The notes under the pieces are model-generated. The model had not been told where the DNA came from, made no database searches, and saw only the letters and a list, made by a program, of their open reading frames with translations. The position numbers and the translations under genes were made by a program. From Escherichia coli (GTDB lineage Bacteria > Pseudomonadota > Gammaproteobacteria > Enterobacterales > Enterobacteriaceae), in NCBI RefSeq assembly GCF_003334335.1, contig NZ_QOWQ01000026.1: 64,000 bases of DNA. One strand, given 5' to 3'. Shown in pieces: positions 28,874 through 29,415 of this stretch. How positions within the stretch are numbered: position 1 is the first letter of the stretch; every line of letters starts with the position of its first letter.

Positions 28874-29017
28874 TCACCACGGGATAAACTGGTTAATGGC
28901 ACAAATTCCGCTGAAAAATTGTACATCCTGATCGCACATCATGTTGAATACCTGCGCCCAAAGCAGCAAGCAAGCCAACACCACGACAACCAGAACGACC
29001 CATCGAAACTTTTTCAC
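28874..29017 (-). CDS. mgrB: PhoQ-inhibitory small membrane protein MgrB (47 aa)
   Basis: Not in ORF track; GTG start at 29017 with GGAG SD, translation [47 protein letters not shown]. Confidence 0.9.
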
Positions 29018-29175
29018 TCCAATCTCCGCTTCACCTACCTTATGTCATTAAACTAGCATGCGTTAGTTAAACAGCGCCTAACTATGTCGATATTCGTGCT
29101 TTTTCGGAATGAGTAGCTTGCTTCAGCGCATATTGCCGCTACGATTAAGCGAACATAAAAAGAGAAGAGGTTGTA

Positions 29176-29415
29176 ATGCGATTCATCATTCGCACAGTTA
29201 TGCTGATAGCACTGGTATGGATAGGATTATTACTCAGCGGATATGGCGTTTTGATTGGAAGCAAAGAGAATGCCGCAGGATTAGGTTTGCAATGTACCTA
29301 TCTGACTGCCAGAGGCACCAGCACGGTACAATACTTGCACACTAAAAGTGGTTTCTTGGGGATAACAGATTGCCCACTGTTACGTAAAAGCAATATCGTG
29401 GTCGATAATGGTTAA
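29176..29415 (+). CDS. yobH: uncharacterized small protein YobH
   Basis: ORF track 79 aa; signal/TM-like N-terminus; divergent from mgrB. Confidence 0.8.
   Translation: MRFIIRTVMLIALVWIGLLLSGYGVLIGSKENAAGLGLQCTYLTARGTSTVQYLHTKSGFLGITDCPLLRKSNIVVDNG

Follow-up and report, generated by a model that had tools for sequence, protein, structure and literature searches.

The region upstream of mgrB in the 64,000-nucleotide stretch of Escherichia coli DNA analysed here (the window) carries, with a probability of roughly 0.93, the standard PhoP-activated class II promoter of this gene, with the activator at the -35 position (architecture I/II in the scheme of Zwir 2012). The initial annotation of the locus had described the PhoP box as atypical, having paired two GTTTAA hexamers whose spacing did not agree with an 11-bp direct repeat. 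That description does not hold, since a canonical 11-bp repeat, TAGTTA-N5-TGTTTA at 29084..29068, had been overlooked. The mgrB PhoP site, the locus and the feedback gene were all already known, mgrB being the textbook PhoQ/PhoP feedback gene. The present analysis removes a false "atypical" flag from its PhoP box and exposes a general trap, namely that the Escherichia -10 hexamer TAGTTT mimics a PhoP half-site.

In the mechanism proposed for this promoter, a phosphorylated PhoP dimer would bind TAGTTA-ggcgc-TGTTTA head-to-tail, at a box with its midpoint some 32-33 bp upstream of +1, where it would replace the -35 element. The extended -10 element TGcTAGTTT, 12 nt downstream of the box, would supply the remaining polymerase contacts. 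A transcript beginning at about 29044/29043 would carry the GGAG in its leader of about 26-27 nt, and translation from the GTG at 29017 would yield the 47-aa membrane peptide MgrB. Inhibition of PhoQ by MgrB (Lippa & Goulian 2009) would then close a negative feedback loop. The present analysis itself establishes the geometry, the conservation, the matrix scores and the agreement with the published site. PhoP binding and PhoP dependence of the E. coli mgrB promoter are taken here from the literature (the Salmonella footprint and the E. coli site listing, see below). PmgrB is a strong PhoP-dependent reporter (PmgrB-yfp; Lippa & Goulian 2009), and the mgrB promoter has been used elsewhere as an EMSA positive control (PMC8355897).

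The mgrB locus and its divergent neighbour

The coding features of the locus are as follows.

28874..29017, minus strand: mgrB CDS, 47 aa plus stop, PhoQ kinase inhibitor (ORF list; RefSeq WP_000714550.1; K-12 b1826; NCBIfam NF007635)
29015..29017, minus strand: GTG start codon of mgrB, the first start codon past an in-frame TGA at 29047..29045
29024..29027, minus strand: Shine-Dalgarno sequence GGAG, 6 nt before the GTG (read from the sequence; conserved in 78 spacers)
29176..29415, plus strand: yobH CDS, 79 aa (ORF list; RefSeq "YobH family protein" WP_001211011.1; K-12 b4536)

The protein encoded by the ORF at 28874..29017 (MKKFRW...FIPW) is identical to the product of the RefSeq mgrB CDS, and it matches the NCBIfam MgrB equivalog over residues 1-47 of 47 with 89.9 bits against a cut-off of 40. 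The family features are present, namely an N-terminal MKKxRW, a hydrophobic segment and a C-terminal ...IPW, and the MgrB homologues retrieved carry PF13998. In the alignment of MgrB proteins the invariant residues are M1, K2, K3, R5, W6, D29, D31, V32, F34, F35, S36, G37, I38, C39, I45, P46 and W47. This alignment was the route to 80 loci from as many species of Enterobacteriaceae, in genera that include Citrobacter, Salmonella, Klebsiella, Enterobacter, Kluyvera, Kosakonia, Buttiauxella and Cedecea; 78 of the mgrB-yobH spacers were themselves aligned, and conservation values below refer to this spacer alignment unless stated otherwise.

The earlier description of mgrB as a 47-aa gene with a GTG start and a GGAG Shine-Dalgarno sequence is borne out by the ORF, the RefSeq CDS, the NCBIfam match and the position of the GGAG. 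A longer N-terminus for MgrB is ruled out, because the reading frame has no further start codon between the TGA listed above and the GTG. Of the 80 species loci, 79 begin with GTG and one (Kluyvera cryocrescens) with TTG. The GTG columns are 99-100% conserved while the leader around them is only 40-70% conserved, and so this weak start codon is a retained family trait and no oddity of E. coli. It is reasonable to suppose that GTG may have been kept through selection for low translation of the feedback inhibitor. Within the GGAG the outer G residues are invariant across the 78 spacers, and the inner G and A are conserved in at least 90%.

The claim that mgrB is divergent from yobH also stands: the two CDSs lie on opposite strands across a 158-bp spacer (29018..29175), and tblastn placed yobH divergent from mgrB in 78 of the 80 species loci. 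Together, the GTG start (79/80) and the divergence from yobH (78/80) are thus family-wide traits. In the two other loci, from Pseudescherichia vulneris and Escherichia sp. ESNIH1, tblastn found no match to yobH at the locus. The spacer measures 156-168 bp in 77 of the 78 loci with the divergent pair and 284 bp in one (L022). None of the NCBIfam models matched YobH.

The window is part of the E. coli chromosome, and its stretch 28500..29600, annotated yebO, mgrB, yobH and kdgR, is present in 5425 of 5426 complete E. coli genomes. Around mgrB the window is colinear with K-12 MG1655, and a window position equals the K-12 coordinate minus 1,879,749.

The PhoP box and the core promoter

The following elements make up the mgrB promoter, all of them on the minus strand.

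29067..29085, minus strand: complete PhoP site, the 19-mer ATAGTTAGGCGCTGTTTAA (10.1 bits with the PhoP matrix; the published b1826 site)
29079..29084, minus strand: promoter-distal half-site TAGTTA, starting 11 bp before the proximal half-site (missed in the initial annotation)
29068..29073, minus strand: promoter-proximal half-site TGTTTA, the first of the two sites originally noted (GTTTA core invariant in 78/78 spacers)
29057..29058, minus strand: TG of the extended -10 element TGcTAGTTT, 29058..29050 (both bases invariant in 78/78 spacers)
29050..29055, minus strand: -10 hexamer TAGTTT, which contains the AGTTTA (29054..29049) of the second site originally noted (aligns with the Salmonella -10 TAATTT)
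29043..29044, minus strand: predicted mgrB transcription start, C 29044 / A 29043 (from the homologous start of Salmonella yobG, mapped by S1)

The box TAGTTA-ggcgc-TGTTTA consists of two hexamers separated by 5 nt, which places it in the 11-bp register. Relative to the (T/G)GTTTA consensus the proximal hexamer matches at 6/6 positions and the distal one at 4/6. The core GTTA of the distal half-site is nevertheless 96-100% conserved, its G, first T and A being invariant and its second T present in 96%. Twelve nucleotides, ACTAACGCATGC, separate TGTTTA from the -10 hexamer TAGTTT, and the -35 position is occupied by GGCGCT, which is unlike TTGACA.

Published sites fall on the same 19 positions. 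The set of PhoP binding sites in Harari 2010 (PMC2908699, Fig. S2) lists b1826, labelled E. coli, as the 8-mers ATAGTTAG and CTGTTTAA with three dashes between them, and these equal the 8-mers of ATAGTTAGgcgCTGTTTAA at 29085..29067 (ATAGTTAG-gcg-CTGTTTAA). In Salmonella, where the gene is called yobG, footprinting located the proximal box, ACAGTTACTCCTGGTTTAA, which has the direct orientation and is separated from the -10 by 12 nt (Zwir 2012, PMC3335776). These figures were reproduced on two Salmonella loci (L080 and L081), and the Salmonella box aligns column for column with E. coli 29085..29067. In the spacer alignment Salmonella CAGTTA falls on TAGTTA and Salmonella TAATTT on TAGTTT. Searching the literature for the promoter sequence itself brought up only an unrelated paper.

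The box was also scored with a position weight matrix (PWM) built from 36 footprinted Salmonella boxes (Zwir 2012 Table 1) with yobG left out, the null being every 19-mer of the window on both strands. At 10.1 bits it reaches a score attained by only 2e-4 of window positions. On the same matrix the left-out Salmonella yobG footprinted box scores 7.8 bits, and the yoaE PhoP box at 22033..22015, taken as a positive control, 13.7 bits. When the 160 nt upstream of mgrB were searched independently of any alignment, the best matrix match was directly oriented and 47-54 nt away from the start codon at 60 of the 80 loci, the distance in E. coli being 50 nt.

Fully or almost fully conserved in the spacer alignment are the GTTA and GTTTA of the box, the TG of the extended -10, positions 2 (A) and 6 (T) of the -10 hexamer (A 29054 is invariant and T 29050 is found in 99%), the outer G residues of GGAG, and the GTG. 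The composite pattern GT[TG]A-N6-GTTTA-N9-TG-N-TAnnnT is shared by 67 of 81 loci, and the 64-kb window has a single copy of it. The exceptions, which are small variants, comprise Buttiauxella, with the -10 sequences CAGACT or CAAACT; three loci in which the box spacer is 1 nt longer; two in which GAG replaces the TG of the extended -10; and one with the -10 TAACCG. Variants of the -10 hexamer among the loci include TAACCT (29 loci), TAATTT (9) and TATCCT (9).

These data bear directly on the pair of hexamers from which the "atypical" description arose. The 28-mer that was quoted in its support, CTGTTTAACTAACGCATGCTAGTTTAAT, lies at 29074..29047 on the minus strand; it holds two GTTTAA hexamers (29072..29067 and 29053..29048) whose first bases are 19 bp apart. 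The count that led to the rejection of an 11-bp spacing was therefore correct, and both hexamers are real, on one strand and upstream of mgrB. One could accordingly suppose that PhoP uses this pair as a non-canonical box. However, a GTTTA overlapping the -10 is found in only 2 of the 67 pattern-matching loci, both from Escherichia, the -10 hexamer elsewhere being TAACCT or TAATTT, and at the downstream hexamer only -10-type positions (the A and the final T) are conserved. A PhoP dimer bound there would, moreover, cover the -10 and block RNA polymerase. The PWM speaks against the pairing as well: every register that uses the second site scores below 0 (-1.0 with it as the 3' half and -5.5 with it as the 5' half), and the first site taken as the 5' half scores -0.3. 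Finally, the window contains 38 copies of GTTTAA where 36.4 are expected, and a nearby second copy of a hexamer at chance frequency is by itself no evidence of a binding site.

Use of the GTTTAA pair by PhoP thus has next to no probability; as far as sequence comparison can decide, it is in practice refuted by the conserved and correctly spaced repeat. The alternative that had been offered alongside it, that the half-sites had been misplaced, proved to be the right one: the second site, AGTTTA, is the -10 hexamer read with a one-base offset. Re-inspection turned up the canonical spaced repeat TAGTTAggcgcTGTTTA (29084..29068) in the 11-bp register, the matrix scan that had been proposed picked out this repeat over any register using the second site, and comparison with published sites led to 29085..29067 (E. 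coli b1826 and the Salmonella footprint alike) and not to the GTTTAA pair. Because the -10 mimics a half-site, an eye-scan with a strict (T/G)GTTTA pairs the proximal half-site wrongly and passes over the distal half-site xAGTTA, which is conserved but imperfect.

In Salmonella yobG the -10 TAATTT is followed after 5 nt by the S1-mapped +1, which gives a 26-nt leader (Zwir 2012, PMC3335776); both values were reproduced exactly on the Salmonella loci L080 and L081. By homology, the E. coli mgrB start is inferred to lie near 29044/29043, for a leader of 27 or 26 nt; A 29043 is conserved in at least 90% of the spacers. The hexamer TAAGGT (29042..29037), which shares its T, A and last T with a -10 element, might be proposed as the -10 in place of TAGTTT, and the distance between box and -10 would then be non-standard. 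This is very improbable: conservation in the columns of TAAGGT is no more than 40-70%, the leader would be cut to about 12-13 nt, the invariant TG-N-TAnnnT is found 13 nt further upstream, and the mapped start and -10 of Salmonella correspond to TAGTTT. The expected E. coli start coordinates and the gene name were sought in Cappable-seq supplements and were absent from them. A generic sigma-70 scan returned no promoter in the spacer and only two chance sites inside the mgrB CDS. Such a blank is expected of an activator-dependent promoter that lacks a -35 element, and it is not positive evidence.

Promoter variation within E. coli

A 51-nt core promoter is found at 99% identity or more in 4929 E. 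coli genomes and at 95-99% in a further 197. Megablast gave no match to it in 300 of the 5426 genomes, though 5425 hold the locus; these 300 may have SNPs that break the 28-nt seed, or insertions like that of strain 88COLEC. In 88COLEC (NZ_CP070906.1) an IS1 (2527..3315) sits between the box and the -10, at the equivalent of window 29056/29055, where it parts the core promoter from the site of the activator. Promoter insertions of this class have been described in trimethoprim-resistant E. coli isolates (Patel & Matange 2021, PMC8483737). The promoter geometry, the TG of the extended -10, the GTG and the divergent spacer of about 160 bp are fixed across many enterobacterial genera, and this is relevant when mutations of the mgrB promoter, or IS insertions in it, are interpreted in isolates resistant to colistin or trimethoprim.

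The distal block and the yobH side of the spacer

Beyond the PhoP box the spacer contains three further elements, all of them described on the plus strand.

29099..29117, plus strand: conserved block CTTTTTCGGAATGAGTAGC, aligning with the Salmonella distal reverse footprint GTTTTTAGGAATGATTCAC in the spacer alignment
29118..29123, plus strand: predicted yobH -35 hexamer TTGCTT (TTG 99-100% conserved)
29140..29145, plus strand: predicted yobH -10 hexamer TACGAT (A 29141 and T 29145 conserved in at least 90%)

In Salmonella, yobG has a distal reverse PhoP box in addition to the proximal one, with the sequence GTTTTTAGGAATGATTCAC (Zwir 2012, PMC3335776). This box coincides with TTTTT(A/C)GGAAT (29100..29110, plus strand), the most conserved block of the spacer, in which T29102, T29103 and the GAAT at 29107..29110 are found at 97-100%. 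Read on the minus strand, the block ATGATTCC(T/G)AAAA (29099..29113) is conserved as well as the PhoP box across the 78 species.

E. coli might accordingly share architecture II, with a functional reverse PhoP box at 29117..29099 next to the proximal one. By a hand count the E. coli block is identical to the Salmonella distal box at 14 of 19 bases, and it ranks with the best-conserved parts of the spacer. Its PWM score, however, is about -0.7 in E. coli; the median over the 78 loci is 2.9, and only 14 of them reach 7 bits. The E. coli hexamers TTTTTC and GAGTAG match the consensus at 4/6 and 2/6 positions, and the conservation peak is GGAAT, which would be the spacer of the box and not one of its half-site cores. 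A functional second PhoP box in E. coli is on balance unlikely, although not outlandish.

The geometry TTGnnn-16 nt-TAnnnT occurs in 62 of the 78 spacers, which suggests that TTGCTT-16 nt-TACGAT is the yobH promoter. The block at 29100..29110 occupies the positions about 42-52 bp ahead of the start predicted for yobH and ends 23 nt before the predicted yobH -10, a geometry that corresponds to architecture III of Zwir. A more speculative reading, and a rather doubtful one, is that TTTTT(A/C)GGAAT is an undescribed control element shared by the back-to-back mgrB and yobH promoters. If so, it could bind a conserved activator or serve yobH as an UP-like element. Alternatively, yobH could be coupled to PhoP in those genomes in which the block scores as a PhoP box (Salmonella, Citrobacter), and the "second PhoP box of yobG" would then belong to the divergent yobH. 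PhoP control of yobH, which the distal box geometry had brought up, was considered and set aside. In Salmonella, yobH is reported to depend on SprB and is seemingly not regulated by PhoP/PhoQ (Banda et al. 2019). Comparison of the block by eye with consensus sequences for RcsB/RcsAB, KdgR and sigma-28 gave no convincing fit. A genomic-SELEX peak of the sigma-28 (RpoF) holoenzyme has been reported in the mgrB/yobH spacer, at about K-12 v2 coordinate 1906860 (Shimada et al. 2017, PMC5493296); the spacer, again compared by eye with the sigma-28 consensus, showed no convincing promoter of this type.

One further candidate PhoP site in the spacer, CTTTTTATGTTCGCTTAAT at 29162..29144 on the minus strand, scores 10.9-11.0 bits and was rejected as a composition artefact. 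Its T-rich sequence is complementary to the purine-rich leader and ribosome-binding site of yobH and reaches into the predicted yobH -10, and the mgrB start is over 100 bp downstream of it. The candidate is without counterpart in the two Salmonella footprints and is the best match in only a handful of the orthologous loci.

Other PhoP-matrix matches in the window

The matrix scan of the whole window also returned matches at other loci. The highest score, 15.9 bits, belongs to ATGTTTAGTGTATTTTTAA (25532..25550, plus strand), just past the yobD stop codon in the yobD-mntP spacer and about 390 nt upstream of the mntP start codon. The second-best, CTGTATAAGTTTTATTTAA (45581..45599, minus strand; 15.2 bits), overlaps the 3' end of a 105-aa ORF (45271..45588, plus strand) and faces into it; this match is probably due to chance. 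The fourth-best is the control mentioned above, ATGTTTAACTCCCGTTTAA (minus strand), a near-perfect PhoP box about 180 nt upstream of yoaE (20280..21836, minus strand), with TATAGG 12 nt after the box. The yoaE PhoP site has been footprinted in Shigella flexneri (PMC5775216).

Comparison with known PhoP-activated promoters

The closest known system is the mgrB promoter of E. coli K-12 (b1826, yobG), to which the window is base-for-base identical in the box, the extended -10, the -10 hexamer and the CDS. Two single-base differences from K-12 are found in the mgrB-yobH spacer, at 29029 and 29115, and both are outside the box and the -10.

The yobG promoter of Salmonella Typhimurium, which is of architecture II, shares with the E. 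coli promoter the direct box xAGTTA-N5-(T/G)GTTTA placed 12 nt from a TAnTTT -10, the leader of about 26 nt, the GTG start and the divergent yobH. The two differ in that the E. coli leader is 1 nt longer and the -10 is TAGTTT in place of TAATTT. They differ also in the distal reverse box, which is degenerate in E. coli and scores 7.0 with the PWM in Salmonella. The Salmonella counterpart of the proximal box has a modest submotif score of 0.66 (Zwir 2012, PMC3335776).

With the architecture I promoters (mgtA, phoP P1, yrbL and slyB), the E. coli mgrB promoter has in common a single direct box that lies one helical turn (12 nt) upstream of the -10 and replaces the -35 element. The boxes of those promoters consist of two near-consensus halves (submotif S1), whereas the distal half of the mgrB box is of the weaker xAGTTA type, which is assigned to S2 in Salmonella.
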